NCBI GenBank assembly: GCA_035253005.1
Contig: DATFCO010000220.1
Location: 1 to 45,224, forward strand
DNA: 45,224 bases
Source of the DNA: Rhodanobacteraceae bacterium
GTDB lineage: Bacteria > Pseudomonadota > Gammaproteobacteria > Xanthomonadales > Rhodanobacteraceae
Direction: 5' to 3'
This document shows positions 475 through 35,167 of this stretch, piece by piece. Position 1 is the stretch's first letter. Each line of letters starts with the position of its first letter. The notes under the pieces were generated by a model, which saw only the letters and a program-made list of their open reading frames with translations, searched no databases and was not told the origin of the DNA. Position numbers and translations under genes: made by a program.

Positions 475-492
475 GTGGGCCGTGATGGGATC
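475..492. repeat. att site at the tRNA-distal ICE end: exact 18-bp direct repeat of the tRNA-Lys 3' end
   Basis: gtgggccgtgatgggatc is identical to 45151-45168. The extended match 470-492 versus 45146-45168 is 21/23. Confidence 0.8.
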
Positions 493-642: not shown

Positions 643-2175
643 CTAACTTCGTACACGACTATGGCTGCGGCGCTCTTGACATCCCCACTCGCACTGGTCA
701 TCAGCGGCAAGGTTTGTGTTTACTCGCCCACCATTGAGAAAGTTCAATGTGGTGATCTCATTCAGCAGCTGGCATTGGTTCTTTAGGACAGTTTGCTGCA
801 GCAGCCTCGCCCCGAGAAGCAGTGCGGCTCCTAAGGAAACGAAGCCGGCAGAAAATTGAGTGGGCGGACGCGTCGCAAAATTATTGAGCGTCGCTTCGCC
901 GATACTTCCGCACTGTGGGTTAGCGAGATATTCCTCGACGGCTTCTACATTCAAGCCTTGCTCGACCAAGAAATCTCTTCGCGCGCCGGGAAGCATCTGA
1001 CGGAGCTGTCGTTCGAGCTCACGGATGTTCTCTCCATCACGCTCTTTGGGGTTAAAGCACGCCAGGCAGGCCGCGCCGGGACGCTGCGAGTACCAATTGG
1101 TTCGAGCGGTCATGTCGAGGGTGCTTCCACCCATCAACAACCGTGGCTGCAGCCCCTGGATGTCCTGTCTGGAGATTCCCTTGTCAACGCAGGACGCGAC
1201 GATCTCGAATTCAGAGTTGTCGACTTGACGAGCAACATCAGATCTGAGGCCCCGTCGAATATCGGAAACATAAGTTTTCACCGTCCCATCGTATGGGAAG
1301 GTCTCAATTCCGCACGCCAGCAATGCGGAAGAGATCGCATCCACCTTTTTGTGGGACACATCCTGTGCGCCCGCAAGAAAACAACGATTCAAATTCGTAC
1401 CGTCGTAAACGTCATCATCTACCAGAATGAAATATCCCTGGTCGAGCTCCATGTTCTGCATCAAATAGGCGAGACCATTTCCAACTGCGCCCAGACCGAA
1501 GATATGGATAGGACAGAGGCTGAGTCCAGACACCTCAGGGCCATCTTCAAGCGCGCACCAATCTTCATTCGATTCACCGGACCACAAGGAATAGCCCGCT
1601 GCGCTCAAGAAACGACCTCGGGTGATACCCCGGGTGCGTTTGAAGACTTCGCCGGCCGCTAACGTAGCTCCAAAGAAAGGCCCAAGCGGATTTCTCGAGT
1701 TGGGAGAGGCATTGCGAGGGGCTTTGTCGGGCTCACCGACCCATGCGCACCAACCATCGGCAATGACTGTGATTACCTGACGTTCCGCTGATAGCGCGAT
1801 CGAAGGAGAAGTGTTGCCGATAAGGATGAGATGATCTGGGTCGTGAACAGTCGCAGATGTGCAGATGGAAACCGCGTCTCCTACGGCCCAGCTCACGAGT
1901 GCCTCAAGGCAGTTGGGGAAGGTTTCAACCGCTTGGCCGTTCGGCAATCTAACTACTGCTGCGGTCGATCTTGCTACCACCTCCAAATGTCTCACTAATC
2001 CAACCTGACGACAAAGAAGATTCACCAGACAAGTGACAAGTAGCTGTCCGGATCGAGAGCTTCCCCACTCATCCGCAACAACAATGCGCACGGACTGAGC
2101 ATCGGGCTGAAGCATATGGGATAGGCCGTCGGCGGGGCGAAGATGCCGGTCGCCAATCTTTTTGACGCCGCTCAT
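643..2175 (-). CDS. bilD: E1-like ThiF-family Ubl-activating enzyme (Bil-type system, BilD-like)
   Basis: 510 aa. Has the GLGAVGNG nucleotide-binding loop, DDDVYDGTNLNRCF (ThiF/E1 D.D....SNLNR-type motif) and a CLAC pair. Its start shares ATGA with the JAB stop (2172-2175). Last gene of the Ubl-E2-JAB-E1 operon. Confidence 0.85.
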   Translation of the reverse strand: MSGVKKIGDRHLRPADGLSHMLQPDAQSVRIVVADEWGSSRSGQLLVTCLVNLLCRQVGLVRHLEVVARSTAAVVRLPNGQAVETFPNCLEALVSWAVGDAVSICTSATVHDPDHLILIGNTSPSIALSAERQVITVIADGWCAWVGEPDKAPRNASPNSRNPLGPFFGATLAAGEVFKRTRGITRGRFLSAAGYSLWSGESNEDWCALEDGPEVSGLSLCPIHIFGLGAVGNGLAYLMQNMELDQGYFILVDDDVYDGTNLNRCFLAGAQDVSHKKVDAISSALLACGIETFPYDGTVKTYVSDIRRGLRSDVARQVDNSEFEIVASCVDKGISRQDIQGLQPRLLMGGSTLDMTARTNWYSQRPGAACLACFNPKERDGENIRELERQLRQMLPGARRDFLVEQGLNVEAVEEYLANPQCGSIGEATLNNFATRPPTQFSAGFVSLGAALLLGARLLQQTVLKNQCQLLNEITTLNFLNGGRVNTNLAADDQCEWGCQERRSHSRVRS

Positions 2176-2705
2176 CTCAGATCCTCTACCTGGACTTCTC
2201 CCGGCACAAGAATCACACGCGCTTTCGCTGACTGCTCGTCGAGGAGATGCCAGTACTCATTCTGCCACTCGTGCACACCCACCCCGCTTGGAAATGCTGG
2301 AGCATGGTTCCCGTAGAAAGGAAACACCATCGATAGTGCCTTCCTGCTGCTCGCCATTTCATCGTCGTATCTTGAGTGCTCAACGTTTGCACCAGGATGA
2401 CTGTGAATTTGCGCCAAGGGCTTCCAGATATCGGGCAGGCGGCGAACCACTTCAGTCAAGGCCTGCGCCGAAACCAAATAATTTCCCCAGCTCATTCGCT
2501 GGCGCGGGGCGACGACATAAGCCACTGTGCCGTTCCCAGCGGCATCTCGAACTCCGTACCACAGCACTCCACTTTCACGACGTCTTGCGGCTCTTAGCAG
2601 AGCAAGTGTCGATGTCAAGGCCGAGAACGGAACCCGAAGCTGAAGGCCATTGGGCTCGTACGCTCGCGCCGATGGTGGACGTAAGACGTCGTCTTCATTG
2701 TCCAT
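2172..2705 (-). CDS. bilC: JAB/JAMM (MPN+) metallopeptidase, Ubl-processing/deconjugating enzyme (BilC-like)
   Basis: 177 aa. Complete JAMM signature: E44 in ESGVLWYG, then H101-S-H103-PGANVEH-S111-RY-D114 (HxHx7Sx2D). Overlaps the E2 stop by 11 nt. Confidence 0.88.
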   Translation of the reverse strand: MDNEDDVLRPPSARAYEPNGLQLRVPFSALTSTLALLRAARRRESGVLWYGVRDAAGNGTVAYVVAPRQRMSWGNYLVSAQALTEVVRRLPDIWKPLAQIHSHPGANVEHSRYDDEMASSRKALSMVFPFYGNHAPAFPSGVGVHEWQNEYWHLLDEQSAKARVILVPGEVQVEDLR

Positions 2706-3216
2706 GTTTTGGAAACGGTCCTTGGTAGAAAGAAGCCATTGCTCTCTTTATTGCGTTGACGGTGGTCCAGAAGTTATTGGTTTCGGACCACAGGTGCTCT
2801 TGCGCGACGTTGTGCTTTATTTCGTAGAACTCCAGAGTGGCCGAACAACAAATGAGCTGGATCTTGTTTGTACCGTGTGGGTAGGCAACATGTGTCCGGC
2901 ATTCTCCGCTCGTAAGCTGCGGAACAAAGTGCTGATCCTGCGGGTAGGAGTAACTCAGCGTCTCCGGATTCACGAACTGCGCGCTGGGAGGCCAAGTCCG
3001 ATATGCATGGAAGCCCAAACGCAGCAGATAATCGTCGGTGTTCCCTTGGTGCACCCCGGAGATCGGGATTAGCAACGTGAGCTTATTCGGGCGCGACCAC
3101 CCTAACTCTTCAATCGAAGTCGCACCGAGCATTCTCAAAACGCGCGGCAGATCCTCCTCCAAGGCCGCCGCGCCCGCCGCGGGATCTATCGCCGGAGATT
3201 CGTTGATTTGCGCCAT
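2695..3216 (-). CDS. bilB: E2-like (UBC-fold) Ubl-conjugating protein (BilB-like)
   Basis: 173 aa. YRTWPPSAQFVNPE resembles the UBC Y..PP...F...NP core. Candidate catalytic Cys at 106 or 123/124 (IQLICCSATLEFY). Its ATG at 3216-3214 directly abuts the Ubl stop. Confidence 0.7.
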   Translation of the reverse strand: MAQINESPAIDPAAGAAALEEDLPRVLRMLGATSIEELGWSRPNKLTLLIPISGVHQGNTDDYLLRLGFHAYRTWPPSAQFVNPETLSYSYPQDQHFVPQLTSGECRTHVAYPHGTNKIQLICCSATLEFYEIKHNVAQEHLWSETNNFWTTVNAIKRAMASFYQGPFPKHGQ

Positions 3217-3519
3217 CTAGGCGCCTCCAGTCTCCGACGCGATGCTGAACCGGTAATCGGTAATAACGCCTTGATCACGTGCTTGTTCCAGCGTCAACCC
3301 GAGATCACCCATCAGAGATTTCGGATGGTGCCCAGCCGTTTGGAAAACGTCCTTGGCTCTGCGCGCGATCTTGAGTTCTACATACGACTTGTCCCAGACC
3401 TGCGCTAAGGTGGCGGTAATAGATTCGGAGAACGTGACCTTCTCGGCTTCTTTGATGTCCTGGACATGGACCTCAACGTGCTTGGGGTGCCGCTTGGATT
3501 CTTCTGCTTGCTCATTCAC
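3217..3519 (-). CDS. bilA: Small ubiquitin-like (beta-grasp) protein with C-terminal ...SETGG-A (BilA-like)
   Basis: 100 aa. GTG start at 3519 with AAGGA 8 nt upstream. C-terminus is GGA-stop (diglycine plus one residue). First gene of the operon with E2, JAB and E1. Confidence 0.72.
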   Translation of the reverse strand: MNEQAEESKRHPKHVEVHVQDIKEAEKVTFSESITATLAQVWDKSYVELKIARRAKDVFQTAGHHPKSLMGDLGLTLEQARDQGVITDYRFSIASETGGA

Positions 3520-3594
3520 TGGAGTGATCCTTCTTGACTGGGGTCTTCAGATATGATTCTATTCGTTGCAGCTGTAGGACGTATTCGATGAGAA

Positions 3595-3610
3595 ACGTAT
3601 CGTCTTACGT
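3595..3610. promoter_or_regulatory. Candidate operator: ACGTA-N6-TACGT inverted repeat just downstream of the putative -10
   Basis: acgtatcgtcttacgt. A third ACGTA half-site lies at 3579-3583. Sits in the divergent intergenic region between the Ubl gene and the XRE gene. Confidence 0.3.
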
Positions 3611-3617
3611 GCGAAAC

Positions 3618-3646
3618 ACTCTACTCGGCAGCGCCTGAGCCGTCAA
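3618..3646 (-). promoter_or_regulatory. Candidate sigma-70 promoter for the Ubl-E2-JAB-E1 operon
   Basis: The minus strand reads TTGACG (3646-3641), a 17-nt spacer, then TAGAGT (3623-3618). It lies ~95 nt upstream of the GTG at 3519. Confidence 0.4.
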
Positions 3647-3678: not shown

Positions 3679-4029
3679 GTGGAATTAAAAATCAATGATT
3701 TAGGAAAGATGGTTGCCGATAAGCGCGGAACTCGTGGGGTTAGGGCAGCCGCTTTAGAAGCAGGCGTGAGCCCCGCGACACTCTCCAGGGTGGAGAACGG
3801 CCACATGCCCGATCTCGCCACTTTTGCCAGACTATGTAAGTGGGTCGAACGAGATCCGCGCGAGTTCTTAGGCATGGAGCTGAGCAACGACCAAGCGACA
3901 ACCCCAACGGCGGTTGTGCATTTCAAGAAAAAGAAGACAGTCGCAATGGACACTGCAACCGCGCTGGGACATTTGATCATTGCTGCGCAGAATGCATTGC
4001 GTGCGCGTGAAAGCCTTCTGGGCAAGTGA
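3679..4029 (+). CDS. XRE-family helix-turn-helix transcriptional regulator (CapH/ImmR-like)
   Basis: 116 aa. HTH segment RGVRAAALEAGVSPATLSRVENG. GTG start at 3679 preceded by GGAGA. An alternative ATG at 3709 has AGGAAAG upstream. Followed 3 nt later by the ImmA-like gene. Confidence 0.8.
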   Translation: MELKINDLGKMVADKRGTRGVRAAALEAGVSPATLSRVENGHMPDLATFARLCKWVERDPREFLGMELSNDQATTPTAVVHFKKKKTVAMDTATALGHLIIAAQNALRARESLLGK

Positions 4030-4032
4030 CCC

Positions 4033-4596
4033 TTGCGACGTGGCTTCAAAGCTCAAGCGGAAAAGAACGCCGCAGCAGCGAGAGCTGCGCTGCAGCTGGC
4101 AGAGATTGCGCCTCTGGACCCTTGGGAGTATGCCGCGCATCTCAACGTGACCATTCTCGATTTCGAGACACTTGGCTTGAATACTCAAGTGACTCGTCAA
4201 TTGATAGAGGTCGATGCTTCAAGTTGGTCAGCAATGACCTTGCAAGAGGGAAATGCTTTTGCGATCGTGATCAACCCTGTCCACGCAAAAGTGCGGCAGC
4301 GGAGCGATCTCATGCATGAGTTGTCGCACATTCTCCTGCGGCATGTTCCCGCTCGCGTAGATGTCGCCCCATCAAAACTGTTGCTCCTGAGTGACTACTC
4401 CGACGAGCAGGAGCAAGAAGCAGATTGGCAGGCGGGAGCACTCCTAGTGCCTCGGGATGGGTTACTGCGTTTGCGCTCGCGCCGGCAAAGCGCGGCAGAT
4501 ATTGCAGAGCATTTTGGAGTCAGCGCCGCACTTTGCGAATGGCGCTTGCGCATGACTGGAGTGGATGTCCAAATGCGTCGCTCTACGAACGGCTGA
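4033..4596 (+). CDS. ImmA/IrrE-family (COG2856) zinc metallopeptidase (CapP/ImmA-like)
   Basis: 187 aa. HEXXH as HELSHILLRH, plus downstream EQEADWQAGALLVPRDGL, typical of ImmA/IrrE. TTG start at 4033, 3 nt after the XRE stop. Confidence 0.8.
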   Translation: MRRGFKAQAEKNAAAARAALQLAEIAPLDPWEYAAHLNVTILDFETLGLNTQVTRQLIEVDASSWSAMTLQEGNAFAIVINPVHAKVRQRSDLMHELSHILLRHVPARVDVAPSKLLLLSDYSDEQEQEADWQAGALLVPRDGLLRLRSRRQSAADIAEHFGVSAALCEWRLRMTGVDVQMRRSTNG

Positions 4597-4623: not shown

Positions 4624-4648
4624 AAAACGCGGGCTATATAAGCCCGCG
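4624..4648 (-). terminator. Probable intrinsic terminator of radC
   Basis: 8-bp GC stem cgcgggct/agcccgcg (4628-4635 and 4641-4648) with a 5-nt loop. Followed on the minus strand by TTTT (4627-4624). Overlaps the radC stop. Confidence 0.45.
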
Positions 4649-5116
4649 CTGCGCCATGGAGGTCGCCGTCTCGCCGATGACGAAGTGGTCGAGGACGCGA
4701 ACGCCAATGAGAACCAGAGCATCGCGCAGCTCGCGCGTGATCGCGCGATCCGCCGCGGAAGGTTCTGAGACACCCGAAGGGTGATTGTGCGCGAAGATCA
4801 CGGCGGCGGCATTGTGCCGGATGGAGGCGCGTACGACCTCACGCGGATGAACTGAAGCGCCATCGAGCGTGCCATTGAAGAGCTTTTCGCACGCGATGAC
4901 GCGATGGCGATTGTCGAGGAAGATGCAGTGAAACTCTTCGTGCGGCAGCGCGCCAAGTCGAATGCGCAGGAACTGTTCGGTGTCGCGCGGACTCTTCAAC
5001 TCGGCCTGGCGCTCGAGCCGCCGGCGTAGGATGTCTTCCGCAGCAACGAGAATCTCGTGTTCGCAAAACGGTGTGGTGACGTGATAGTCGTTCAACATGT
5101 CGCGGCGGTGACTCAT
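4634..5116 (-). CDS. radC: RadC-like JAB-domain protein
   Basis: 160 aa from the ATG at 5116 (GGAG RBS upstream). Motifs [20 protein letters not shown] and HPREV are typical of RadC/UPF0758. The longer track ORF to 5290 is Arg-rich and was rejected. Confidence 0.85.
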
Positions 5117-5510
5117 GTCTGATCTCCTTCGGCGCTGGATTGCACCGTGGGAAGTCAGGCGCGTAGCGGGATAGCACCAGCGCACCGCAAGCAAGCGCGC
5201 AGCGCGCAGCGGCGGGCGGAACGCAGTGGAGCACCCCTTGCGGGTTGCGCGGTGCGACCGCGAAGCAATGATGACCACGATAAGGTGCAATTCCCCGCAC
5301 GAAGACAGACATGCAAAGCGGAGCCGCGATCGGCGAATACACGAATCTGTGTTTGCGAGAGACGCGGCGGTGAGTTTCCTGCGTTGCGGAGCGCCAGCGA
5401 ATCAGCGCGCGAACACTTCTTGTTCCAGCATTCGCCTAAGCGCAACCACGACCGATGCGGACGAAGCACGCGCCGCAGAGCCGAATTATTCAGTGATCGG
5501 CAGAAGTGCT

Positions 5511-5981
5511 CTATGAACGCAAGCGATCGTCGTAGATGAACCTACGCACCCTCGTGGCCTTGCAGCGCTTTGCATCCGGATGAGCTGGATTGATCAAGAT
5601 GTTCAGCTCCTCGGGGACGATCACCGAAGGCACCCGAAGAATCGCACTCACCCCTGAGCGCACCCATGTTTCGCCGACCTCGATGGACGTCAGCCCGGCA
5701 GGCTGTGCATCCCATCCAACCGGAGGCCTCGCAATCTCGGTCGCCTCATTGAACACTTCATCCGGAATGTCGATGCGGATGAGATAGCGATTCAATGGAA
5801 GCGAGTGGGTGCCGATGTGGACCAAAGTTTCCAATACGGCCAGCCCGATGTTCGGCGACGAATAGACGATCGCCGTCCCTTTGTCGTTCCAGCGTCCGCC
5901 GGTGTCCTTCGCTCCGGCGCCGGTCATGTCATCGCAGTGGTAGCTCCTCGCTTCGACGGCGATACGCCAAGCGGTGGCCAT
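5511..5981 (-). CDS. RES-domain toxin
   Basis: 156 aa. R-E-S signature elements GGRWN, LAVLE and RVPSVIVP. Its start shares ATGA with the upstream antitoxin stop (5981). Confidence 0.8.
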   Translation of the reverse strand: MATAWRIAVEARSYHCDDMTGAGAKDTGGRWNDKGTAIVYSSPNIGLAVLETLVHIGTHSLPLNRYLIRIDIPDEVFNEATEIARPPVGWDAQPAGLTSIEVGETWVRSGVSAILRVPSVIVPEELNILINPAHPDAKRCKATRVRRFIYDDRLRS

Positions 5982-6550
5982 CAGGCGTACGCGCCCGATT
6001 GCGATTGTTGCAGAATTTTCAGGACTTCCTGGGCGCCGACTGCCGTATCAAGCAACTCGGCCGGTTTGCGATCGCCTAGCGCCGGAACGGGTGTCTGCAC
6101 CCACTCACCGACCCACTTCGCCGCATCGAATCCTTCCGGATTGCCGCTCTCATCGACGATGCGCTGTGCTTCACCGATCAGCTTGCTGACATCCAACACA
6201 CGCTCGCTCTCCGATGGCGACAACGGCTTGTCGTTTTGCAGCTTGCGATGAACAGACTGGATAGCGACCCCCGTCCATCGGCTGAAAGTCTTTTGATCCG
6301 TTCCCAGATCCTTCGCGATTCTTTTGAAGACTTCGGGCGAGACTCCGTAGCGCAGCACTTCGACCAAGAATCCCGGTTCTGCTCGACGGATCATGGTGTA
6401 GGTGTCGCGATCGAAGTCGTCCCTGCCCGTCAGCTTGCGCGCGAGGCCTTTATTAGTCTCCAACATCGCACTTCCCGAGCTGGTTTGAGCGTACGCAGTA
6501 AACCGACCCGCCGCGGCGGACCTCTCGCTTCTCCGAAGAGCCTTACTCAT
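5981..6550 (-). CDS. Xre-like antitoxin with C-terminal DUF2384 domain (MbcA/ParS-type partner of RES toxins)
   Basis: 189 aa from the ATG at 6550 (AAGGAG RBS). The C-terminus ...FDAAKWVGEWVQTPVPALGDRKPAELLDTAVGAQEVLKIL is typical of DUF2384. Translationally coupled to the RES gene. Confidence 0.75.
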   Translation of the reverse strand: MSKALRRSERSAAAGRFTAYAQTSSGSAMLETNKGLARKLTGRDDFDRDTYTMIRRAEPGFLVEVLRYGVSPEVFKRIAKDLGTDQKTFSRWTGVAIQSVHRKLQNDKPLSPSESERVLDVSKLIGEAQRIVDESGNPEGFDAAKWVGEWVQTPVPALGDRKPAELLDTAVGAQEVLKILQQSQSGAYA

Positions 6551-6816
6551 CGTCGTCTCCTTTGAGAGCAGATTATAACTCATTTGAGACAGCAATGTTT
6601 GCCGGCAAAACCCCTCAAAGAAGTCGCAAGTCGAATCCTGTCCTCCCAAGCCATTCCAATGTCAAGGCTTCGCATCACCATGGCGTCTGAGAATTTACTG
6701 ATGCACCGCAAATTCAGCTTGACACAACGGTGTTCTTTGACCTACCTTTGAAAAAACGCCAATAAACGTAGCAGTTTTTTTGCGTTTTTTTATAAACAAA
6801 CAAGAAGAATTTTGGC

Positions 6817-18456: not shown

Positions 18457-19173
18457 ATGAGCAATGAAGCACCCGAACTGCCGGAAGGCGGTCGTGCCCC
18501 CAACAAGCGGCCTTTGAACGAAATCCGTCGTATTGGCGGCGAAAAAGGCAGTCCCGACCGCACCATCCCCGAACACCTGAAGCCGCACTATCACCAGGAC
18601 GGCAACGCCTTCCGCTCGGCCTACCGTCCGGACCGGATCGAGTTCGTGGATCGCGGCAGCCGCATGCACGCCTATTTCCCGATTAGTACCTTCACCGTGC
18701 GCGCGCTCGCGGAGATCGCCGTCGCGCGTGGCTGGAAGGAACTGGAAGTCACGGGCTCCCAGGACTTCCAGCGATCGGCCTATGTCGAAGCCGCCACGCG
18801 TGGGCTGAAGGTCCGCGGCTACGAACCGACGGAAAAGGATCTGGAAATCCTGCAACGCCGATCCGAAAGGCGTGAAGCCGAAAAGAACCCGCTGGTGCAG
18901 GCGTTTCTCGCCGCGGAATCGAAGAAAGACCAAGAAAGCGCAATCAAGAAATATCCGCAGCTCAAGGCGGCATTCCTTGCCGATGCTGCCGCCAAGGCCA
19001 TCGCGGAGGCGAAAATCGATTCGAAGAAGGCTGCGGAGAATTTCGTCTCCCGCTTCCGCGACTCCATTGCAATCGCTCTTCACACAGGACGCGCTTTGCC
19101 TGCGCCCGAAGTTAAAGCAGAACCAGCGCGTCCTTCCAAAATCGAGGAGAGGAACCGGGATCGCTCGCGATAG
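18457..19173 (+). CDS. LPD7-like (large polyvalent-protein-associated domain 7) protein
   Basis: 238 aa. ...ALAEIAVARGWKELEVTGSQDFQRSAYVEAATRGLKVRGYEPTEKD matches my recollection of the LPD7 core. Lys/Glu-rich tail. Immediately downstream of the coupling protein. Confidence 0.55.
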   Translation: MSNEAPELPEGGRAPNKRPLNEIRRIGGEKGSPDRTIPEHLKPHYHQDGNAFRSAYRPDRIEFVDRGSRMHAYFPISTFTVRALAEIAVARGWKELEVTGSQDFQRSAYVEAATRGLKVRGYEPTEKDLEILQRRSERREAEKNPLVQAFLAAESKKDQESAIKKYPQLKAAFLADAAAKAIAEAKIDSKKAAENFVSRFRDSIAIALHTGRALPAPEVKAEPARPSKIEERNRDRSR

Positions 19174-19333: not shown

Positions 19334-22300
19334 CTATTTGTCGCGCGCACTTCGCCCTAAATCCCGACGGCTGATCAAAGGTGGGCGTCTCCTCAGTCGC
19401 TGCCGTTCGAGCAACCGGAACGCCGCGGGAATCACCAACATGGACAGGATCGGTGCGGTGATCATGCCGCCGACCATCGGCGCGGCGATTTGCCGGGTCA
19501 GCTCCGATCCTACGCCACCGCCGAGCATGATCGGAAGCAGACCGGCAATGATCACCGCGACCGTCATCGCGATCGGTCGCACGCGCATCAGCGCGCCTTC
19601 GCGGATCGCTGCGTCCAGCGCTTCGTCGGTCACGGCGCCCGCTTCGAGCTGGCGCTGCCAAGCGTGGCGCAGGTACAACATCATCACCACACCGAACTCC
19701 GCGGTGAGCCCGGCCAGTGCGATAAAGCCGATCACGTTCGCCACGGATATCTCGTAGCCGAGCAACCAAGTCAGCCAGAAGCCGCCGACCAGCCCGAGCG
19801 GTACGGTCAGCAGGATGATCCCGGCCTGCGCGGTGTCGCGGAAGATCAGGTAGATCAGCAGGAACACGATCACGACCGTCGCCGGTATCACGTACCGCAA
19901 GCGTTCCTTCGCGTGCTGCAGATACTCGAATTGCCCGGCCCACCCCAGCGTGTAGCCGGGCGGCAACTTCACCTGCTGCGCGATCGCCTGTTTCAGCGAT
20001 GTCACCAGACCGCCGAGATCGCCGCTCGGCGTGTCCACATAGACATAGGTGGTCGGCACGCTGTCTTCGCTCTTCAGCATCGGCGGGCCGTTGGTCACGA
20101 CGAGATCGGCGACCTGGCCCAAGGTGAGTTGTGCGCCGTTGGCCGCCACGATCGGCAGCGCGCGCAGGCTCGCCAGCGAATCACGCTCCGAGCGCGGATA
20201 ACGCAGCACGATCGGAAAGCGCTCCAGACCCTGCACGGTCTGGCCGATCGGCTCGCCACCTACGACGGTGCTGATCAGCGATTGCACGTCCTGCTGGGTC
20301 AAGCCGTAGCGCGCAGCGGCATCGCGGTGGACTTTTACTTGCACGTAGCGCCCGCCGGCGCTGCGTTCGGCGATGACGGAACTGACGCCAGGCACCGTGC
20401 GCGCCACGTTCTCGATCTGCCGGGCGATGCGTTGCAGCTCGTTGATGTCGGGCCCCAGCACCTTGATGCCGATCGGCGTCTTGATGCCGGTGGACAGCAT
20501 TTCGGTGCGGGTACGGATCGGATACACGAACAGGTTGGTGAGGCCCGGCACCTTCACCGCGCGATCGAGTTCCGCTTTTAGCTTGTCCATGGTCATACCG
20601 GGACGCCACTGATCCTGCGGCTTGAAAGTGATCGTGGTATCGAACATCTCCAGTGGCGCGTTGTCGGTGGCGGTCTGCGCGCGGCCGGCTTGGCCGAACA
20701 CGTGCGCGACTTCCGGCACCGTCTTCAACATGCGATCGGTTTGCTGCAACAACTGCGCAGCCTTGCCGGCGGATATCCCCGGCAACGCGGTCGGCATGTA
20801 CAGCAGCGTGCCCTCGTTCAACGGCGGCATGAACTGCGAGCCGAGCCGCGATATCGGCAGCAACGCAGAGACCAGCACGATCGCCGCGACGATCAGCACC
20901 GTGCGCGGCGCACGCAGCACCCATGCGATCAACGGCCGGTAGAGTTCGGTCAATGCGCGATTAAGCGGATTGGCGTGCTCGGGGCGGATGCGCCCGCGCA
21001 CCAGATATCCGATCAGCACCGGAATCAGCGTGACGGACAATCCGGCCGCCGCCGCCATCGAATAGGTCTTGGTGAAGGCGAGCGGCTTAAACAACCGGCC
21101 TTCCTGCGCCTGCAAGGCGAACACCGGTACAAAGGAGAGCGTGATCACCAGCAGGCTGAAGAACAGCGCCGGGCCGACTTCGGCGACCGCTTCCGCGATC
21201 AACTCCCAGCGTTCGCGCGCGGTGGGTTCACCACGATCCTCAGGCGCGAGATGCCACGCCTCCAGATGCTTGTGGGTGTTCTCGATCATCACCACCGCCG
21301 CATCGACCATCGCACCGATCGCGATCGCGATGCCGCCCAGCGACATGATGTTGGCCGAGACGCCTTGCCAATCCATCACGATGAAGGCGGCCAGCACGCC
21401 CAGCGGCAGCGTGAACACCGCGACCAGCGAGGAACGCAGGTGCCCCAGGAACAGCGCGCAGACCAGCGCGACGATGATGAATTCCTCCAGCAGTTTTTCG
21501 CCGAGATTGCCGACCGCGGAATGGATCAGCTTCGAGCGGTCGTAGGTTGGTACGATCTGCACGCCCGGCGGCAAGCTCTTCTGCAACTTCGCGAGCCGCG
21601 CCTTGACCGCGTTGATGGTGGTGAGCGCGTTCTTGTTGTAACGCATGATCACGATCCCGCCGACCACCTCGCCCTGGCCGTCGAGTTCGGCGATGCCTTG
21701 GCGCACGGTCGGTCCGCGACGGATCGTCGCTACCTCATCCAGCAGCACCGGCGTGCCATCCTTGTTGGTGGCGACCGGAATGCGCGCGAAGTCCTCGTGC
21801 GATTGCAGATAGCCTTCGCTGGACACCATCAGATCGGCTTCGCCCTGTTCGATCACCGAACCGCCGCTGGCGCCGTTGGCCTGCTTGATCGCGTTCTCGA
21901 CCTGCGGCACGGTCAATCCGCGCGTGGCCAGCGCCAGCGGATCAATAACGACCTGCCACGCCTGCACCATGCCACCCACCGTCGCAACTTCGGCCACGTT
22001 CGGTACGGTCTTCAACCGGTAGCGCATGAACCAGTCCTGCAGCGCGGTCAACTGGCCCAGATCATGGCGGCCAGTGCGATCAACGAGTGCGTATTCGTAG
22101 ATCCAGCCGGCGCCCGTGGCATCGGGACCGAGCGCCGGGCTGATACCGGCCGGCAGCTTGTCGCGCGCCTGGCTCAGATATTCGAGCACGCGAGAGCGCG
22201 CCCAGTAGGGGTCGGTGCCGTCCTCGAACAGGATGTAGACGTAGGAGTCGCCGAAGAACGAGAAGCCACGCACCGCCGTGGCGCCCGGCACCGACAGCAT

Positions 22301-22516
22301 CGTGGTCTCCAGCGGATAGGTGACCTGATCCTCGACTAGTTGCGGCGCCTGACCCGGCCAGGACGTGTGCACGATGACTTCCGTGTCCGACAGGTCGGGC
22401 AGCGCGTCGAGCGGTGTGCGCAGCAGCGCGATGACACCGGCAATGGCGAGCGCCAGCGCGGCAAGCAGCACCATGCCGCCATTGGCAATGGACCAGCGGA
22501 TCAGACGAGCGATCAT
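19334..22516 (-). CDS. cusA: Heavy-metal efflux RND pump, CusA type (Cu/Ag)
   Basis: 1060 aa. IAIAIGAMVDAAVVMIEN is the CusA-type TM4 signature, rather than the CzcA DFG..DGA form. ATGA-coupled to cusB. Confidence 0.9.
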   Translation of the reverse strand: MIARLIRWSIANGGMVLLAALALAIAGVIALLRTPLDALPDLSDTEVIVHTSWPGQAPQLVEDQVTYPLETTMLSVPGATAVRGFSFFGDSYVYILFEDGTDPYWARSRVLEYLSQARDKLPAGISPALGPDATGAGWIYEYALVDRTGRHDLGQLTALQDWFMRYRLKTVPNVAEVATVGGMVQAWQVVIDPLALATRGLTVPQVENAIKQANGASGGSVIEQGEADLMVSSEGYLQSHEDFARIPVATNKDGTPVLLDEVATIRRGPTVRQGIAELDGQGEVVGGIVIMRYNKNALTTINAVKARLAKLQKSLPPGVQIVPTYDRSKLIHSAVGNLGEKLLEEFIIVALVCALFLGHLRSSLVAVFTLPLGVLAAFIVMDWQGVSANIMSLGGIAIAIGAMVDAAVVMIENTHKHLEAWHLAPEDRGEPTARERWELIAEAVAEVGPALFFSLLVITLSFVPVFALQAQEGRLFKPLAFTKTYSMAAAAGLSVTLIPVLIGYLVRGRIRPEHANPLNRALTELYRPLIAWVLRAPRTVLIVAAIVLVSALLPISRLGSQFMPPLNEGTLLYMPTALPGISAGKAAQLLQQTDRMLKTVPEVAHVFGQAGRAQTATDNAPLEMFDTTITFKPQDQWRPGMTMDKLKAELDRAVKVPGLTNLFVYPIRTRTEMLSTGIKTPIGIKVLGPDINELQRIARQIENVARTVPGVSSVIAERSAGGRYVQVKVHRDAAARYGLTQQDVQSLISTVVGGEPIGQTVQGLERFPIVLRYPRSERDSLASLRALPIVAANGAQLTLGQVADLVVTNGPPMLKSEDSVPTTYVYVDTPSGDLGGLVTSLKQAIAQQVKLPPGYTLGWAGQFEYLQHAKERLRYVIPATVVIVFLLIYLIFRDTAQAGIILLTVPLGLVGGFWLTWLLGYEISVANVIGFIALAGLTAEFGVVMMLYLRHAWQRQLEAGAVTDEALDAAIREGALMRVRPIAMTVAVIIAGLLPIMLGGGVGSELTRQIAAPMVGGMITAPILSMLVIPAAFRLLERQRLRRRPPLISRRDLGRSARDK

Positions 22517-23883
22517 GGGTGCGCTCCGTGACCGCTCGAAGCCGACGATGCGGGCATCGGCATGCCAGGCATCGCGTTCATCTTCGAGTTGCTTGAAGGC
22601 GGGGCAGCGGGCATGTTCATGCCGGACATGCCTCCATTGCTTGCAGCGGGCGTCGGCTTTGGGCCGGTGTTCAACCGCTCCAGCGCGCCGGACAAGCTCG
22701 CTTCCGAATCAATCAGGAACTGTCCCGAGGTGACGATGCGTTCGCCGCCGCGCAGGCCGGCAAGGATTTCGGTCAGGCCGTCTGACGAGCGCCCGGTCTT
22801 CACCCGCACCGGTTTGAAGCTGCCATCCGGCAATCGCTCAATGACACGCGTCGCGGTGCCGTCGGCGATGATCGCTTCGTCCGGTACCAGCGGATGCGCG
22901 GCATGCGCCGTACCCTTGATGCGCAGATTTGCGAACATGCCCGGCGCCAGATCGCGTTTCGGGTTCTGCAGCACGATGCGTGCGCGCTGGGTGCGGGTGG
23001 AGGGGTCCACTTCGGGCAGCAGTTCTTCTACCTGGCCTTGGAAGGTTTCACCGGGCAGCGCACTGACTGTCGCCATGATCGGAGTGCCGGCGCGGACGCC
23101 ACCGCTCATCGCCTGCGGGATGGCGGCATCCACCCACACGGTATCGAGTCCGTTCAACTGCATGATCGGCGCACCGGCGCTGATCTGCTGGCCTTCCGTG
23201 GCATCGAGTGCACTCACCACGCCATCCATCGGCGCACGCAAGGTGATTGTCCCGCTGCCCGCGCGCGGTCCGCGAATCGTTGCGTCATCCATGCCCAATG
23301 CATGCAGGCGCGCACGCGCAGCACCGCGCAGTGCGCGAGCATCGGCCGACTTCGCGTTGCCCAACGCGAAATATTCCGCCGCCGCCGCGCTCCATTGCGG
23401 CGCTAGGATTTCCGCGAGCGGCTGGCCTTCCTTGACCGTCGCGTACGGCGCACGTACGTACAGCTTTTCGATGGTGACATCCGTGCGTGCGCTGACGGTG
23501 ACGGCGAGGCGCTGATCCCACGCGATGGTGCCGGGCACGTGCAGCGTGTCGGGGAGCGTTCCGGTTTTCACCACTTCGCTGCGCACGCCGAGGTTCTGCT
23601 CGACGGCCGGATCGATACGCACCACGTTCCGACCTGCGCTGCCGTTCTGCTCGACGTACTTGGGCACCATCTGCATGCCCATCGGCGAAGTGCCCGGATG
23701 ATTGAAATGCTGCTCCGGCACCATCGGGTCGTACCAATAGAGAATCTTCTTGCCCGAAGATTGCGAAGATGCGGTTGCACTGCCCGATGCGGCTGGCATG
23801 GACTGCCGCGCGATGAAGTAGCCGATGATGCCGGCCACGACCAAGGCGACCGCCGCCCCGACAAAGAAAAGAATGCGTCTCAT
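22513..23883 (-). CDS. cusB: CusB-type periplasmic adaptor with Met-rich C-terminal tail
   Basis: The ATG at 23883 shares ATGA with the cusC stop. YWYDPMVPEQHFNHPGTSPMGMQMVP metal-binding segment. The tail is ...GGMSGMNMPAAPPSSNSKMNAMPGMPMP. The upstream 82 codons of the track ORF were rejected. Confidence 0.88.
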   Translation of the reverse strand: MRRILFFVGAAVALVVAGIIGYFIARQSMPAASGSATASSQSSGKKILYWYDPMVPEQHFNHPGTSPMGMQMVPKYVEQNGSAGRNVVRIDPAVEQNLGVRSEVVKTGTLPDTLHVPGTIAWDQRLAVTVSARTDVTIEKLYVRAPYATVKEGQPLAEILAPQWSAAAAEYFALGNAKSADARALRGAARARLHALGMDDATIRGPRAGSGTITLRAPMDGVVSALDATEGQQISAGAPIMQLNGLDTVWVDAAIPQAMSGGVRAGTPIMATVSALPGETFQGQVEELLPEVDPSTRTQRARIVLQNPKRDLAPGMFANLRIKGTAHAAHPLVPDEAIIADGTATRVIERLPDGSFKPVRVKTGRSSDGLTEILAGLRGGERIVTSGQFLIDSEASLSGALERLNTGPKPTPAASNGGMSGMNMPAAPPSSNSKMNAMPGMPMPASSASSGHGAHP

Positions 23884-25175
23884 CACGGCGTCTCCGCAGT
23901 CGAACCGGAATCGGGAATCAGGTAGGCAAGTGCCGCCCAGGCTTTGCCCCAGGCGGCAAGTGCGTTCGCATAAGCGATGCGCGTATCGATCTCGTCGCGG
24001 CGCGCTTCCAGCCAAGGTTGTAGCGAGCCACCGCCGCGGTACAGCGCCAGCGCTGTACGCGCGCGATCGGCCGCCAGCGGCAGCAACTCGTCGCGATAAC
24101 GCCGCACCTGCTTGTCGTCGCCTTGCCATTTGGCGATGGCCGCGGCGACCGCTTCACGCTGCGCGCGGCGAGCATCCTCGTGCTCGGCCCGCACGGCATC
24201 GCGTTCGGCGTAGCGCGCGCTGATGTCGCGATCCTGCCGGTTGCCGGGAAAGATCGGCAGGCTGACACCGACTTCCAGGCTCATCATATCGGTGCGATGG
24301 ATGCGCTCGCCGTACATCAGGCTTACGCTCCAGTCCGGATGCTTTCCGGCCTTGGCGAGATCGAGTCTGGCCTGCGCCTGATCTTCGCGCGCACTCCAGT
24401 CCAGCAGCGGCGCCTGCCGGTCCACATCAGCGTGCAATTGTGCGGGAGAGGCGCGTAGATCGGAAAAATCCGGTGGTTCGGCCAGCGCATCGTTGGCGCG
24501 ATCACCGATCCAGCGTTGCAGCGCCGCGCGCGCGGCGGTGATGTCGGCATCCGCCGCGTCAATCTTGTTTTCGAGTTCCACGGCGGCAGCTTTCGCGGAC
24601 AGCGCATCGGTCGCATTGCCGATACCACCGGCGAGATTCGCTTTCGTCGCTTTCACCGCCAGCGCGGATTGCTCGCGCAACTCGTCCAGCAATGTGCGTT
24701 CGCGCTGCGCGGCCCACAGCATCACCCAGGCGTTCGCGGCGGCGCGTTTCGCATCGAGCCGCATGACCACGCTGTTGGCGTTGGCAAGTTGCACATCGGC
24801 TTGCGCGACATCGCCCATGGCCTCGCGCTTGGCATGCGCAGGGATCTCCTGCATCAGGCCGACCTTGCGCATGGTCATGAAATCGGCCGAAGCGTCGAAC
24901 GCCTGCGGACCGGTCGCGGTGAGATTGTCGATCCCCGCGATCAGCTTCGGATCGGGCAGTTGTCTTGCCCGCACGGCATCGTCTTGCGCCGCTTGTGCGC
25001 GCAGCAATTGCGCCTGCACTTGTGGCGCCTGTGACGCTGCGATTCGTGTCGCCGCATCGAGCGTCAGCGCCGAATCATCACTGGCCGCACATAACCGCTG
25101 TGCGATCAACGCCAATACCAAGGCAATCAGGAAACGCGGCGCGCGCCAGCGCCGCCGAAGCATGGAAAAACGCAT
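23883..25175 (-). CDS. cusC: CusC/TolC-family outer-membrane factor
   Basis: 430 aa with an N-terminal signal. GGAGG RBS 5 nt upstream of the ATG at 25175. First of the cusCBA order. Confidence 0.85.
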   Translation of the reverse strand: MRFSMLRRRWRAPRFLIALVLALIAQRLCAASDDSALTLDAATRIAASQAPQVQAQLLRAQAAQDDAVRARQLPDPKLIAGIDNLTATGPQAFDASADFMTMRKVGLMQEIPAHAKREAMGDVAQADVQLANANSVVMRLDAKRAAANAWVMLWAAQRERTLLDELREQSALAVKATKANLAGGIGNATDALSAKAAAVELENKIDAADADITAARAALQRWIGDRANDALAEPPDFSDLRASPAQLHADVDRQAPLLDWSAREDQAQARLDLAKAGKHPDWSVSLMYGERIHRTDMMSLEVGVSLPIFPGNRQDRDISARYAERDAVRAEHEDARRAQREAVAAAIAKWQGDDKQVRRYRDELLPLAADRARTALALYRGGGSLQPWLEARRDEIDTRIAYANALAAWGKAWAALAYLIPDSGSTAETP

Positions 25176-25701: not shown

Positions 25702-25709
25702 GTATTTGT

Positions 25710-25988
25710 GTGACACACACCATCCGCGACAAAGCCAAGCTTCTAAATCGCGTCCGCAGGTTACGTGGACAATTAAACGGCATCGAAAGGGCTCTGATCG
25801 AGGAGCGCGAGCCGGCGGACATCCTGCACACAATTGCGGCCTGCCGGGGTGCGATCGATGGCTTGCTCGGCCAAGTCATGGAAGGCCATATCCGCGAGCA
25901 CGTGCTCGACGAGCACCGCAAGGCCACACCAGACCAGATGCGGGCCGCGGAAGATTTGATTGCTGTGCTCAGGACTTATCTGAAATGA
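25710..25988 (+). CDS. RcnR/CsoR-family metal-responsive repressor (DmeR-like)
   Basis: 92 aa. The N-terminus MTHTIRDK and ...IAACRGAIDGL...EGHIREH align without gaps to my recollection of E. coli RcnR (H3, H60, H64). GTG start. ATGA-coupled to the CDF gene. Confidence 0.85.
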   Translation: MTHTIRDKAKLLNRVRRLRGQLNGIERALIEEREPADILHTIAACRGAIDGLLGQVMEGHIREHVLDEHRKATPDQMRAAEDLIAVLRTYLK

Positions 25989-27010
25989 ATTCTCGCCATT
26001 CCCACAGCCATGCTGGGGACGAAGATGTTTCCGGCCATGATCACTCGCCCGAATACGATCATCACCACAGTCACGATCAGGGTGGGGGGGTTCTGGGCTG
26101 GGTGCGCAGCTTGTACGGCCACACCCATGACATTGCCGAGCGCGTGGACGCGAGCATGGAGTCCGACGAACGGGGCATCCGCGCGCTCAAGATTTCACTG
26201 GTGGGACTGGGAGCTACAGCGATCGTGCAACTGGCGATCGTGTTGTTCAGTGGATCGGTCGCGCTGCTCGCCGACACGATCCACAACTTCGGCGACGCCA
26301 CCACCAGCGTTCCGCTGTGGATCGCGTTCGCTCTGACCCAGCGCGGCGCCAGCAAGCGTTTCACCTACGGCTATGGCAAAACCGAAGATGTGGCCGGCGT
26401 CATTATCGTGCTGGTGATCTTCTTCTCTGCCTGCGTGGCCGGTTATGAATCGGTATTGAAACTCATCCATCCGCATCCCATGACGCATTTGGGCTGGGTC
26501 GCGGCGGCGGCGGTTGTCGGTTTTATCGGCAATGAAGCGGTGGCAGTGTTCCGTATCCGCGTCGGCCGCGACATCGGTTCGGCGGCGCTGATTGCGGATG
26601 GTCAGCATGCGCGCGTCGATGGCTTCACCAGTCTCGCCGTATTGATCGGCGTGATCGGCACGGCCTTTGGCTTAGCAATCCTGGACCCGATCGTCGGCTT
26701 GCTGATCACTATCGCGATCCTGTTTATCGTCAAGGATGCTGCACTCTCAGTGTGGCTGCGGCTTATTGATGGAATCGAACCGGGAATCCTCGCTCAAATC
26801 GAACACGCACCGACCCATGTGCCAGGTGTGATATCGGTGCGCGACGCGCGTGCGCGCTGGGTTGGTCATCGCGTACACAGCGACATCGAGGTTCAAGTGG
26901 ATCCCGCGTTGTCGGTGCGCGAGGGCGAAGCAATCGCTGCCGCAGTCGAGCGCTCAATGAAAGAGCACGTGCGCCTACTCGGCAGCGTAGTGGTACGTGT
27001 GAGTCCCTAG
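25985..27010 (+). CDS. Cation diffusion facilitator exporter with His-rich N-terminus (DmeF-like)
   Basis: 341 aa from the ATG at 25985. The N-terminus is MNSRHSHSHAGDEDVSGHDHSPEYDHHHSHD. Six TM helices with HNFGD and similar CDF motifs. Confidence 0.85.
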   Translation: MNSRHSHSHAGDEDVSGHDHSPEYDHHHSHDQGGGVLGWVRSLYGHTHDIAERVDASMESDERGIRALKISLVGLGATAIVQLAIVLFSGSVALLADTIHNFGDATTSVPLWIAFALTQRGASKRFTYGYGKTEDVAGVIIVLVIFFSACVAGYESVLKLIHPHPMTHLGWVAAAAVVGFIGNEAVAVFRIRVGRDIGSAALIADGQHARVDGFTSLAVLIGVIGTAFGLAILDPIVGLLITIAILFIVKDAALSVWLRLIDGIEPGILAQIEHAPTHVPGVISVRDARARWVGHRVHSDIEVQVDPALSVREGEAIAAAVERSMKEHVRLLGSVVVRVSP

Positions 27011-27012
27011 CT

Positions 27013-29400
27013 TCATAGCCGCGCCTTGCGCAAACGCAAGGCGTTGCCGATGACCGAAACCGAGGACAGGCTCATTGCCAGCGCCGCGATGATCGGGCTC
27101 AGCAGCCAGCCGAACACCGGGTACAACACGCCCGCCGCAATCGGGATGCCGAGCGTGTTGTAGGCGAAGGCGAAGCCCAGGTTCTGGTGGATGTTGCGCA
27201 CCGTCTGTGCGGACAGATTGCGGCCGCGCAGGAGTCCGCCGAGCTCGCCTTTCAACAAGGTCACCTGCGCGCTTTCCATCGCGACGTCGGTGCCGTCGCC
27301 CATCGCGATGCCCACATCGGCCGCCGCCAGCGCCGGCGCATCGTTGATGCCATCGCCGGCCATCGCAACCTTGGCGTCTCCGTTGCGCAAATCCTCGATC
27401 CGCTTCGCCTTGTCTTGCGGCGTCTGCGCAGCCGCGTATTCCTCGATCCCCAACGCATCGGCCACTGATCGCGCGGTCGGTTCGGCGTCGCCTGTCAACA
27501 TCACGATTCGCAAGCCTTGGGCGCGCAACGCATCGAGCAGTTTGCGCGCTTCCGGCTTGATCGCGTCTTCGACCGCCAGCGCACCGGCAACTTGGCCGTC
27601 AACGGCCAGGTACATGGTCGTCTTCGCCGAAACGCGCAAGGCGTCGAGACGTTCGTCTTTCGGCAGCGTGACGTGCAATGACTCCATCAACGCTGCGTTG
27701 CCGAGCGCAACCTCGCGATTGCTCACCTTGCCGCGCACGCCTTGTCCCGTGATGGCGTTGAAGTCGGTGACTGGGAGCAATGTCAGGCCGCGCTCGCGGG
27801 CACCGGCCACGATCGCGCGTGCGAGCGGATGCTCGCTCATCGCTTCCAGGCTGGCCGCGAGAGTCAGCGCTTCATCATCGGCCATGTCGCTGAGGGTGAC
27901 CACGTCACTCAGGCTCGGCTTGCCTTGGGTCAGCGTGCCGGTCTTGTCCAGCACCAGCGTGTCCACCTGCGCCAGTGCTTCGATCGCCGCGGCATCGCGG
28001 AACAACACGCCGCTTTCGGCACCGCGGCCACTGGCGACCATGATCGAGATCGGCGTGGCCAGACCCAGCGCACAGGGACAGGCGATGATCAGCACCGCCA
28101 CCGCGTTCACGATCGCGTACGCGATGCGCGGTTCCGGCCCGATCAGGAACCAGGTGATGCCGGTCAGGATCGCGATCACGATCACCGCCGGTACGAACAC
28201 GCGCGAGACCCGATCGGCCAGCCGCTGCAGCGGCGCGCGCGAACGCTGCGCCTGCGCCACCAGCGCCACGATCTGCGCCAGCACGGTTTCGTTGCCGATC
28301 TTGTCGGCGCGCATCGTCAAAGAGCCGTTGGCATTCACGGTGCCGGCGGTCAATCGGTCACCCGGGCGCTTGCCGACGGGCATCGGTTCGCCGCTCAGCA
28401 TGGATTCGTCCACGCTGCTCGACCCTTCCAGCACTGCACCGTCCACCGGAATCTTTTCGCCGGGGCGGATGCGCAGCACGTCGCCGACGTGTACCTGTTC
28501 GATCGGCACGTCGCGTTCCTCGCCATCGGCCTCGATGCGCCGCGCTTGCCGTGGCGCAAGATCGAGCAGCCGCCGGATCGCCGCCGAAGTCTTGCCGCGC
28601 GCACGCACTTCCAGCCATTCGCCGAGCAGTACCAGCGCCACGATCACGCCGGCTGGTTCGAAGTACACGCCGATCATGCCGCGCGCATCGCGGGTGCGCG
28701 GTGGAAAAATCTGCGGCACGAAGGTCGCGACCAGGCTGTAAACGAACGCGACCAGCACGCCCAGGCCGATCAGCGTGTACATGTTGGGTGAGCGATTGCG
28801 CACACCCATCCAGCCGCGCCGGTAGTAGTCCAGGCCCAGCCACAACACCAAAGGCGCGGCCAGGATCAGTTCGGCCCAACGCAGCACATGGGCCGCTGTT
28901 CCAGCGAATTGCGCGCCGAATACATGCGGCACCATCGCCACCGCAAACAGCGGAATCGCCAGCACGACGGCAATCCAGAATTTTCGCCGCACCCTGCGCA
29001 GCTCGCTGTCGTCTTCTTCGGAGGCTGGCATCAACGGCTCCAGCGCCATGCCGCAGATGGGGCACACACCGGGACCGATCTGCCGGATTTCCGGATGCAT
29101 CGGGCAGATGTAGACCACGCCCTCATCGTGGCTGCGCGGTTGCGCGGCGGACGCAAGTTCCAGGTAGCGCCCGGGTTCGGTGACGAACTTCTCACGACAA
29201 CGCGCCGAGCAAAAATGGTATGCCTGACCTTGGTGTTCGGCGTGATGCTCCGTCGATGCGGAATCGACTTGCATTCCGCAGACCGGATCGGCAACCCGAT
29301 TCGCCGCCGGTTCCGCCTCGCAGTGTCCACAGCAGCCCTCGGTTTGTACCGAAGGTTCATGCTCGTGGTGATGTTCGTGCGCGGGCAATTGCTCACTCAT
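27013..29400 (-). CDS. Copper-translocating P1B-type ATPase with a non-HMA N-terminus
   Basis: 795 aa. CPC ([11 protein letters not shown]), DKTGTLT and GDGINDAP are present. N-terminal [19 protein letters not shown]...FCSARC (YHS/TRASH-like) and CPMHPE...CPICGM. Confidence 0.92.
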
Positions 29401-33074: not shown

Positions 33075-33131
33075 GATCGGTTCTCCTCGTTACGCGGTAG
33101 TTGCGTTTGAAATTCAGCGTCGATGTCCAGT

Positions 33132-35154: not shown

Positions 35155-35167
35155 GCGATTTGCCTTC

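Follow-up and report, generated by a model that had tools for sequence, protein, structure and literature searches.

Which system do the four co-directional genes at positions 643–3519 of contig DATFCO010000220.1 encode, and how does it relate to the bacterial ubiquitination-like systems already described? The contig stems from a Rhodanobacteraceae bacterium (assembly GCA_035253005.1) and was analysed as one stretch of 45,224 nucleotides, called the window below. In bacteria, eukaryotic ubiquitination has its clearest counterparts in the Bil systems, and a target is known for one of them only (type I). We conclude, with a probability of roughly 0.7, that the window carries a diverged Bil-like (BilABCD-like) conjugation system with its own helix-turn-helix (HTH)/M78 switch, carried as cargo by an integrative and conjugative element (ICE) in tRNA-Lys, at the edge distal to the tRNA. 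An earlier note, made from the DNA letters alone, had identified the genes as a four-gene Bil-type operon, and this identification is upheld by gene order and by the homology of the activating enzyme (E1), the JAB peptidase and the conjugating enzyme (E2). By architecture and by this homology the system is Bil-like, and it is a canonical member of neither published type. The biochemical cascade as such is well supported by inference.

The cassette lies entirely on the minus strand. It comprises a 100-aa ubiquitin-like protein (Ubl) with a GTG start and the C-terminus SETGG-A (BilA-like, 3217..3519), a 173-aa E2 with a UBC-like fold (BilB-like, 2695..3216), a 177-aa JAB/JAMM metallopeptidase (BilC-like, 2172..2705) and a 510-aa E1 with BilD_N and ThiF domains (BilD-like, 643..2175). 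All four open reading frames (ORFs) and their junctions are placed exactly as the earlier note had them: the TAG of the Ubl gene abuts the ATG of the E2 gene, the E2 and JAB genes overlap by 11 nt, and the JAB and E1 genes share ATGA. The four genes are translationally coupled, and purine-rich stretches resembling ribosome-binding sites lie 5′ of the Ubl, E2 and E1 genes. The motifs listed in that note were all recovered, namely YRTWPPSAQFVNPE and C106/C123/C124 in the E2, E44, H101xH103, S111 and D114 in the JAMM peptidase, and GLGAVGNG and DDDVYDGTNLNRCF in the E1. The GC content of the cassette (0.54–0.57) is slightly lower than that of the remainder of the element. Among the genome loci recovered with an E2 profile, the order Ubl-E2-JAB-E1 is kept in 19 of 19, and these span Alpha-, Beta-, Gamma- and Deltaproteobacteria, Acidobacteria, Planctomycetes, Nitrospirota and Verrucomicrobia. 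Since the same four-gene order recurs across several phyla, the cassette ORFs are real genes and not chance reading frames. Some metagenome contigs seemed to lack the JAB and M78 genes, but their DNA is 100% identical and the difference is one of gene calling.

The E1 matches Pfam ThiF at 1e-12 and PADLOC BilD at 6e-26 (89 bits), the latter match covering profile positions 35–284 of 453 only. Precomputed Pfam annotation assigns BilD_N plus ThiF to the window E1 and to 119 other listed proteins, with the exception of one 303-aa fragment. The best solved relative is BilD of the type II Bil system of Ensifer aridi TW10 (8tyz_A, 5e-7); BLASTP aligns the two over 419 aa and both adenylation-like halves with 23% identity (2e-12). 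An N-terminal domain resembling an inactive adenylation domain, which contains R10, is followed by the active ThiF domain. The residues R10, GxGxxG (227–232), D253, N263-R264, D331, C370/C373, C495/C499 and C422 are invariant across 27 members, C499 excepted (at least 90%). R10 parallels the Arg9 finger of BilD, C370/C373 and C495/C499 parallel its zinc-site cysteines, and C422 sits in an insertion, as C417 of BilD does, and is the candidate catalytic cysteine. Taken together, the sequence matches identify the window protein as a probable homologue of BilD.

A ThiF domain is also the hallmark on which a sulfur-carrier or peptide-adenylation system (MoaD/ThiS–MoeB/ThiF or MccB-like) could be proposed, and the window E1 does give weak matches to NCBIfam ThiF/MoeB models and to MccB in the PDB (E ~1e-2 to 1e-4). 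These matches, however, cover the nucleotide-binding core only and fall far under the NCBIfam cut-offs (e.g. 22 bits vs 159–437). No microcin gene lies nearby, and the neighbours include no CD-NTase, MoaE, ThiG or rhodanese gene, as had been noted earlier. The E2-fold protein and the JAMM peptidase are fixed partners, and the E1 carries the BilD_N pseudo-dimer domain. We regard such a function as extremely unlikely; the sub-cut-off matches, the two partners and BilD_N effectively refute it. The E1 does not cluster with MoeB/ThiF enzymes and groups with BilD by PADLOC, Pfam and PDB matches.

For the E2, Pfam, PADLOC and NCBIfam gave no family match, and single-sequence and clade-profile searches of the PDB sequences returned nothing relevant. 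Its AlphaFold2 (AF2) model, with a predicted local distance difference test (pLDDT) score of 87, is UBC-like and runs from an N-terminal helix through a beta-meander to a C-terminal helix. The top PDB matches of this model in Foldseek are the three BilB E2 chains of 8tyz/8tz0, followed by UBE2R1, UFC1, Ube2W, a CBASS E2 and the UEV domain of TSG101. The UBC fold expected for the 173-aa protein is thereby supported. A library-wide profile search found E2 relatives in only 87 clusters (50% identity) among 1.84 billion representatives. In hhalign, the broadened family profile aligned with E. aridi BilB at 94% probability (E 1e-7), whereas a narrow profile remained insignificant. The alignment equates C123 with the catalytic C138 of BilB, E129 with E144, Y131 with H146 and H135 with H151. 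The E2 motif is C-E-Y-H (C123, E129, Y131, H135), a variant of CEHH, and the protein also bears a WPPSAQFVNP motif. C123 is the only invariant cysteine in the wider family and therefore most likely the catalytic one; of the three candidates named earlier it alone stands, as C106 and C124 vary. The Pfam family DUF7665 (PF24702) matches E2s of the clade weakly, with a best value of 1.4e-4 for a Ralstonia plasmid protein (locus L035, 2944–3447) and values of ~0.1 for 5 of 16; DUF7665 may be a Pfam family, not yet characterised, that comprises BilB-like E2s.

The Ubl has no sequence-family match in Pfam or PADLOC. Searches of the PDB sequences with the single sequence and with the clade profile gave nothing relevant, hhalign of the Ubl profile against E. 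aridi BilA was insignificant (0.8% probability), and none of the methods tried linked the two at the sequence level. The AF2 model (pLDDT 84) consists of a single beta-grasp (residues ~14–95) and the flexible tail SETGG-A, and Foldseek matches it to SUMO, archaeal ubiquitin, FAT10, GABARAP, the PI3K ABD and ubiquitin-fold domains, which supports the beta-grasp anticipated for the 100-aa protein. The C-terminus SETGGA is invariant in 30 Ubl homologues, and the GG-A tail resembles G97-A98 of E. aridi BilA. Conjugation is predicted to run through G99, and A100 is predicted to be trimmed off. Ubls of the family are mostly ~140–175 aa long with an Ala/Glu-rich, coiled-coil-like N-terminal extension; the window Ubl and its four nearest relatives (100 aa, 81–82% identical) are entirely without it.

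The JAB protein matches Pfam Prok-JAB at 5e-5 (23.5 bits, just under the 25-bit gathering cut-off), PADLOC BilC at 5.5e-6 and the solved BilC chain 8tyx_B at 8e-4, its E44 being aligned with the mutated catalytic Glu33 of the latter. The JAMM residues E44, H101, H103, S111 and D114 are invariant in 15 homologues. By analogy with BilC, the peptidase is predicted to trim A100 off the Ubl and possibly deconjugates it as well. The cassette as a whole shows the features of Bil operons in the broad sense: (i) four separate genes in order, (ii) a BilD-like E1, (iii) a BilB-like E2 with a catalytic cysteine and a conserved histidine and (iv) a beta-grasp Ubl with a conserved C-terminal glycine, the last according to AF2, Foldseek and the 30 homologues. 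For the E2, the relation is weak at the level of the single sequence and is drawn from the family profile and Foldseek.

How is the cassette controlled? Two genes on the plus strand, divergent from it and 159 bp upstream, encode a 116-aa XRE-family HTH repressor (CapH-like, 3679..4029; Pfam HTH_3 1e-5) and a 187-aa M78/ImmA-IrrE-type zinc peptidase with the motif HELSH (CapP-like, 4033..4596; Pfam Peptidase_M78 1.7e-13, PADLOC capP 1e-9). A promoter scan and a cross-locus alignment place the promoter and operator of the cassette at 3574..3646 on the minus strand. A sigma-70-like promoter faces the cassette (−35 TTGACG at 3646–3641, a 17-nt spacer, −10 TAGAGT at 3623–3618), and an imperfect inverted repeat, GTAGGACG at 3574–3581 and CGTCTTAC at 3601–3608, follows closely downstream of the −10. 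This repeat, which has one mismatch, emerged from the cross-locus alignment; the repeat finder did not report it. CTTGAC, containing the −35 element, and the arms TAAGACG...CGTCTTA are kept in the intergenic regions of loci L009 and L017. The HTH/M78 pair accompanies the cassette in many unrelated genomes. In loci whose examined stretches showed no conjugation genes, it is always adjacent and divergent, and its proteins are highly similar to those of the window (phmmer E 1e-73 to 1e-76 for the M78 protein). Because the pair travels with the cassette in unrelated contexts, it is part of the cassette rather than of the ICE. The arrangement is of the CapH/CapP type, with an HTH repressor and an M78 peptidase upstream and divergent and a conserved operator-like repeat. 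CapP is a peptidase that is switched on by single-stranded DNA (ssDNA) and cleaves CapH; it has two domains, peptidase and GAF, with ssDNA bound in the groove between them. Divergent regulators of this type have been described for 15% of type II Bil operons (10.1101/2023.09.26.559546).

The cassette occupies one end of a complete ICE of 44.7 kb. An 18-bp repeat, GTGGGCCGTGATGGGATC, forms the ICE end adjoining the cassette (475..492), and its partner GTGGGCCGTGATGGGATC lies at 45151–45168 within the 3′ part of a tRNA-Lys gene (45149–45223, minus strand); the number of matches expected by chance is 0. Between these att repeats are genes for a tyrosine integrase, ParA, ParB/KorB, a NikA-like protein, a MobA/VirD2 relaxase, a VirD4/TraG coupling protein and a type IV secretion system (T4SS) of the VirB3/VirB4/TrbL/TrbI type. 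The element has all the marks of an ICE: direct att repeats at a tRNA gene together with an integrase, a relaxase, a coupling protein and a T4SS. Other metagenome contigs contain the identical element with a different flank, and identity ends at window positions 475–478, which confirms the boundary as well as recent mobility. At least two chromosomal flanks are seen, with MlaE/ABC/MlaD genes in the window and L002, and with a 186-aa ORF and a formate/nitrite transporter gene in L001, L003 and L005. Locus L006 has two copies of the att repeat, 79 bp apart. Megablast found no plasmid match for the T4SS region. The cassette is the last gene set before the tRNA-distal repeat, 150 bp inside it, and the earlier placement as the last cargo of a self-transmissible ICE is correct; the accompanying label "att-distal" misleads, as the cassette is distal to the tRNA-Lys/integrase end yet near the other att repeat.

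This position raises the question whether the HTH/M78 pair is the ICE's own excision switch of the ImmR/ImmA type, with the Ubl cascade serving ICE biology, perhaps through modification of transfer proteins, of competing elements or of factors in the recipient while conjugation proceeds. ImmR/ImmA pairs govern the induction of ICEs and prophages, the cassette sits at the extreme end of a complete ICE, and relatives occur on conjugative plasmids. Nevertheless, the pair also travels with the cassette where the examined stretches showed no conjugation genes, and a conserved operator lies within the cassette promoter itself. We hold an ICE-owned switch to be very unlikely.

We compared the system with both published Bil types. 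It shares with type II Bil (E. aridi TW10; 8tyz, 8tz0, 8tyx) the gene order Ubl-E2-JAB-E1, a ~100-aa single beta-grasp Ubl ending in Gly-Ala (trimming by BilC is required in type II), an E2 catalytic cysteine with a nearby histidine, a PPS..FV.P motif, divergent CapH/CapP-like regulators and coiled-coil N-termini on some Ubls. It differs from type II in the low identity of the E1 (23%), in the tyrosine that replaces the second CEHH residue (His146), in a predicted beta-hairpin of the E2 in place of the long disordered loop of E. aridi BilB and in the short M78 regulator of 187 aa. With type I Bil (Collimonas sp. OK412) it has in common the gene order, the enzyme classes and the matches to BilD and BilC, whereas a type I Ubl contains a pair of beta-grasp domains (163 aa) and in most cases stops at the Gly, the window Ubl having one such domain and GG-A. 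A type I assignment is contradicted by the single-domain Ubl, by the BilA and BilB profiles, which find no match, and by the partial BilD match. Of the type II marks, a glycine followed by a short tail is present, with cleavage predicted by analogy, and Metal_CEHH, Prok-E2_C and DUF2604 are absent.

Might the cassette nonetheless be an ordinary member of the type II (CEHH/6C) set that is already catalogued? The single beta-grasp Ubl with its Gly-Ala tail and the divergent CapH/CapP-like genes would fit. Many Ubls of the family have a coiled-coil-like N-terminal extension, a coiled-coil Ubl of Bradyrhizobium is among the type II systems catalogued (10.1101/2023.09.26.559546), and the clade itself occurs in Bradyrhizobium. 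Some members, such as these Bradyrhizobium operons, may already be counted under type II. One of 16 clade E2 relatives also touches Metal_CEHH (E 0.009). The marker profiles recognize the E. aridi references without difficulty (BilD by Prok-E2_C, the type II mark of the E1 N-terminal domain, at 7e-77, BilB by Metal_CEHH at 5e-101, BilA by DUF2604 at 6e-36), whereas the window proteins match none of them at E <= 0.1. The window E1 is only 23% identical to E. aridi BilD and scores above it on the type I-derived PADLOC BilD model (89 vs 51 bits), the E1s of plasmid type II systems ("E2 ligase fold family C") are 22–24% identical, and the E2 motif is C-E-Y-H, not C-E-H-H. Ordinary type II membership is therefore unlikely, and we retain the reading of a diverged Bil-like system.

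The full architecture also recurs in more distant relatives. We found them on a conjugative plasmid of Sinorhizobium fredii, on a Ralstonia plasmid and on two metagenome contigs; the divergent HTH and M78 pair is present, fused into one protein in L033, the Ubls of 3 of the 4 end in ...GGA(QS), and all four (L031, L033, L034 and L035) are non-canonical by PADLOC. On the two plasmids (S. fredii GR64 pSfreGR64b, NZ_CP137018.1; R. pickettii pRp12D0, NZ_CP104383.1), ImmA/IrrE and HTH genes are divergent from Ubl-E2-JAB-E1. Identities to the window proteins are 44–47% for the E2, 44–50% for the JAB protein, 31–35% for the E1 and 34–42% for the C-terminal domain of the Ubl, which ends in ...TGGA or ...TGGAQS. 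The plasmid systems differ from that of the window in an ImmA/IrrE protein of ~290 aa rather than 187 aa and, in S. fredii, in a Ubl of 237 aa whose Multi_ubiq domains precede the homologous C-terminal beta-grasp; their RefSeq annotation is generic only.

Two other bacterial systems use related chemistry. Bub (6E/DUF6527) and type II CBASS with Cap2/Cap3 share E1, E2 and JAB activities with the window cassette and are often under CapH/CapP or CapW control. In Bub, however, Ubl-E2, JAB-E1 or E2-E1 are fused and accompanied by a DUF6527 protease, whereas the window has four separate proteins and no DUF6527 among the neighbours; Bub was rejected on these grounds. CBASS was likewise rejected, as its E2-E1 fusion acts on a CD-NTase, and neither such a fusion nor a CD-NTase gene is found here.

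The clade is small and spans several phyla; its GG-A tail is invariant, and its E2s bear the motif C-E-Y-H. The novelty that had been suggested for the single-domain Ubl and for its pairing with an XRE/ImmA switch does not hold, since both have been published for type II Bil; for the Ubl this includes the Gly-Ala tail trimmed by JAB (10.1101/2023.09.26.559546). The new element is a modest one, a diverged Bil lineage that the type I and type II marker profiles in current use largely fail to see and that is characterised by its GG-A tail and C-E-Y-H E2. Carriage of defence cargo by an ICE or plasmid is unsurprising. A stronger claim would be that of an unrecognised third Bil lineage whose trigger and targets are unlike those of type I; it would be set apart by a GG-A Ubl, an E2 with C-E-Y-H and an M78 switch of short, single-domain build. 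We consider this quite unlikely. If true, the system might, for example, be induced by the ssDNA of conjugative transfer, or be aimed at phages that exploit the T4SS pilus of the ICE or at competing mobile elements, and its carriage on the ICE would then be functional and not incidental.

Several results weigh against the Bil-like reading. The Foldseek scores of the E2 model are weak (E ~1e-2, template modelling score 0.34–0.53). PADLOC BilA and BilB, both type I-derived, do not match the Ubl and the E2, and Metal_CEHH, Prok-E2_C (PF14459) and DUF2604 (PF10790) do not match the window proteins at E <= 0.1. Because type I and type II marker profiles fail in this way, the putative E2 and Ubl assignments depend on fold prediction, one profile–profile alignment and synteny; that of the Ubl draws on fold, tail and synteny, with no sequence-level tie to BilA. 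As for the switch, the Pfam match of the M78 protein covers residues 78–171 and the PADLOC capP alignment covers profile positions 20–143 of 242, and its length of 187 aa implies that it is probably too short for the C-terminal GAF domain of CapP. A peptidase with no room for this second domain may not respond to ssDNA, and sensing may differ. Finally, no targets are known for type II Bil either, and the literature has put forward a stress role unrelated to phage for such systems.

With these points in mind, we propose a mechanism for the diverged Bil-like system, each step of which is inferred by homology. The HTH repressor would bind the inverted repeat just downstream of the −10 and keep the operon low. 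A stress signal, probably linked to DNA damage or ssDNA, would activate the M78 peptidase, which would cleave the repressor and thereby de-repress the operon. The JAMM peptidase would remove Ala100 from the pre-Ubl and expose Gly99; the E1 would adenylate Gly99 (GxGxxG, R10, D331), form a thioester on C422 in the mobile insertion and hand the Ubl to C123 of the E2, adjacent to H135. From there the E2 would pass it to target lysines without an E3, and the JAMM peptidase may also reverse conjugation. Each step of the conjugation cascade has direct experimental precedent in the E. aridi type II system, for which cleavage of BilA by BilC between G97 and A98, E1–E2–Ubl structures and lysine conjugation have been reported (10.1101/2023.09.26.559546). 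By analogy with type I Bil, phage structural proteins would be the most likely targets, with defective progeny virions as the result. Among the Bil types, antiphage activity has been proven and a target identified, the central tail fibre of the phage, for type I alone (10.1101/2023.09.04.556158), and a phage-defence outcome for the window system would have its precedent in that type only.

Would the cascade rather tag host proteins in a general stress response induced by DNA damage? An explicit proposal of a role in the stress response exists for type II Bil and Bub, no targets being known for Bub either; switches of the CapH/CapP type answer DNA damage and not phage specifically; and the remaining cargo of the ICE confers stress and metal resistance. 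Yet the sole Bil system whose target is known modifies a tail fibre of a phage, and homologous cassettes adjoin a type I restriction–modification system and Abi_C (L028) or SIR2_2/DUF4238 and integrase genes (L030), settings that are defence-island-like. Host tagging is, in our estimate, rather unlikely, and phage proteins remain the favoured targets of the Bil-like cascade.

The lineage is compact and widely distributed in Proteobacteria, Acidobacteria, Planctomycetes, Nitrospirota and Verrucomicrobia. As PADLOC BilA/BilB and the type II Pfam families miss its Ubl and E2, detection that depends on these profiles would probably overlook it. Its characterisation would add to the sequence diversity known for bacterial E2s and Ubls, test the generality of Ala trimming by JAB and of E3-independent transfer, and show whether such systems trade as ICE or plasmid cargo. 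The gain to be expected is incremental rather than conceptual.

The remaining cargo of the ICE is copper and heavy-metal resistance. It includes an RND pump (ACR_tran, 19334–22516), a CusB-like fusion protein (22513–24129), a CDF transporter (25706–27010), a P-type ATPase with HMBD/YHS domains (27013–29400), CopB (35168–36487) and a multicopper oxidase (36484–38286). Within the cargo region, a CheR-type methyltransferase (31217–32074, minus strand) stands beside two ORFs (32713–34047, 444 aa; 34285–35196, 303 aa) that have no Pfam match at E <= 0.001. A RadC-like JAB-domain protein (4634–5290, minus strand; Pfam RadC 2e-42) is encoded directly beside the M78 gene, and a RadC homologue is also found 3′ of the cassette in L027. 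Genes for a RES toxin (5511–5981; Pfam RES 2e-28) and an antitoxin with Xre-like-HTH and MbcA-ParS_C domains (5981–6649), both on the minus strand, form a type II toxin–antitoxin pair; it lies between the cassette and the T4SS genes. Right after the T4 coupling protein gene lies that of a protein with large polyvalent protein-associated domain 7 (LPD7; 18457–19173, plus strand), which may be a transferred anti-defence or establishment factor.

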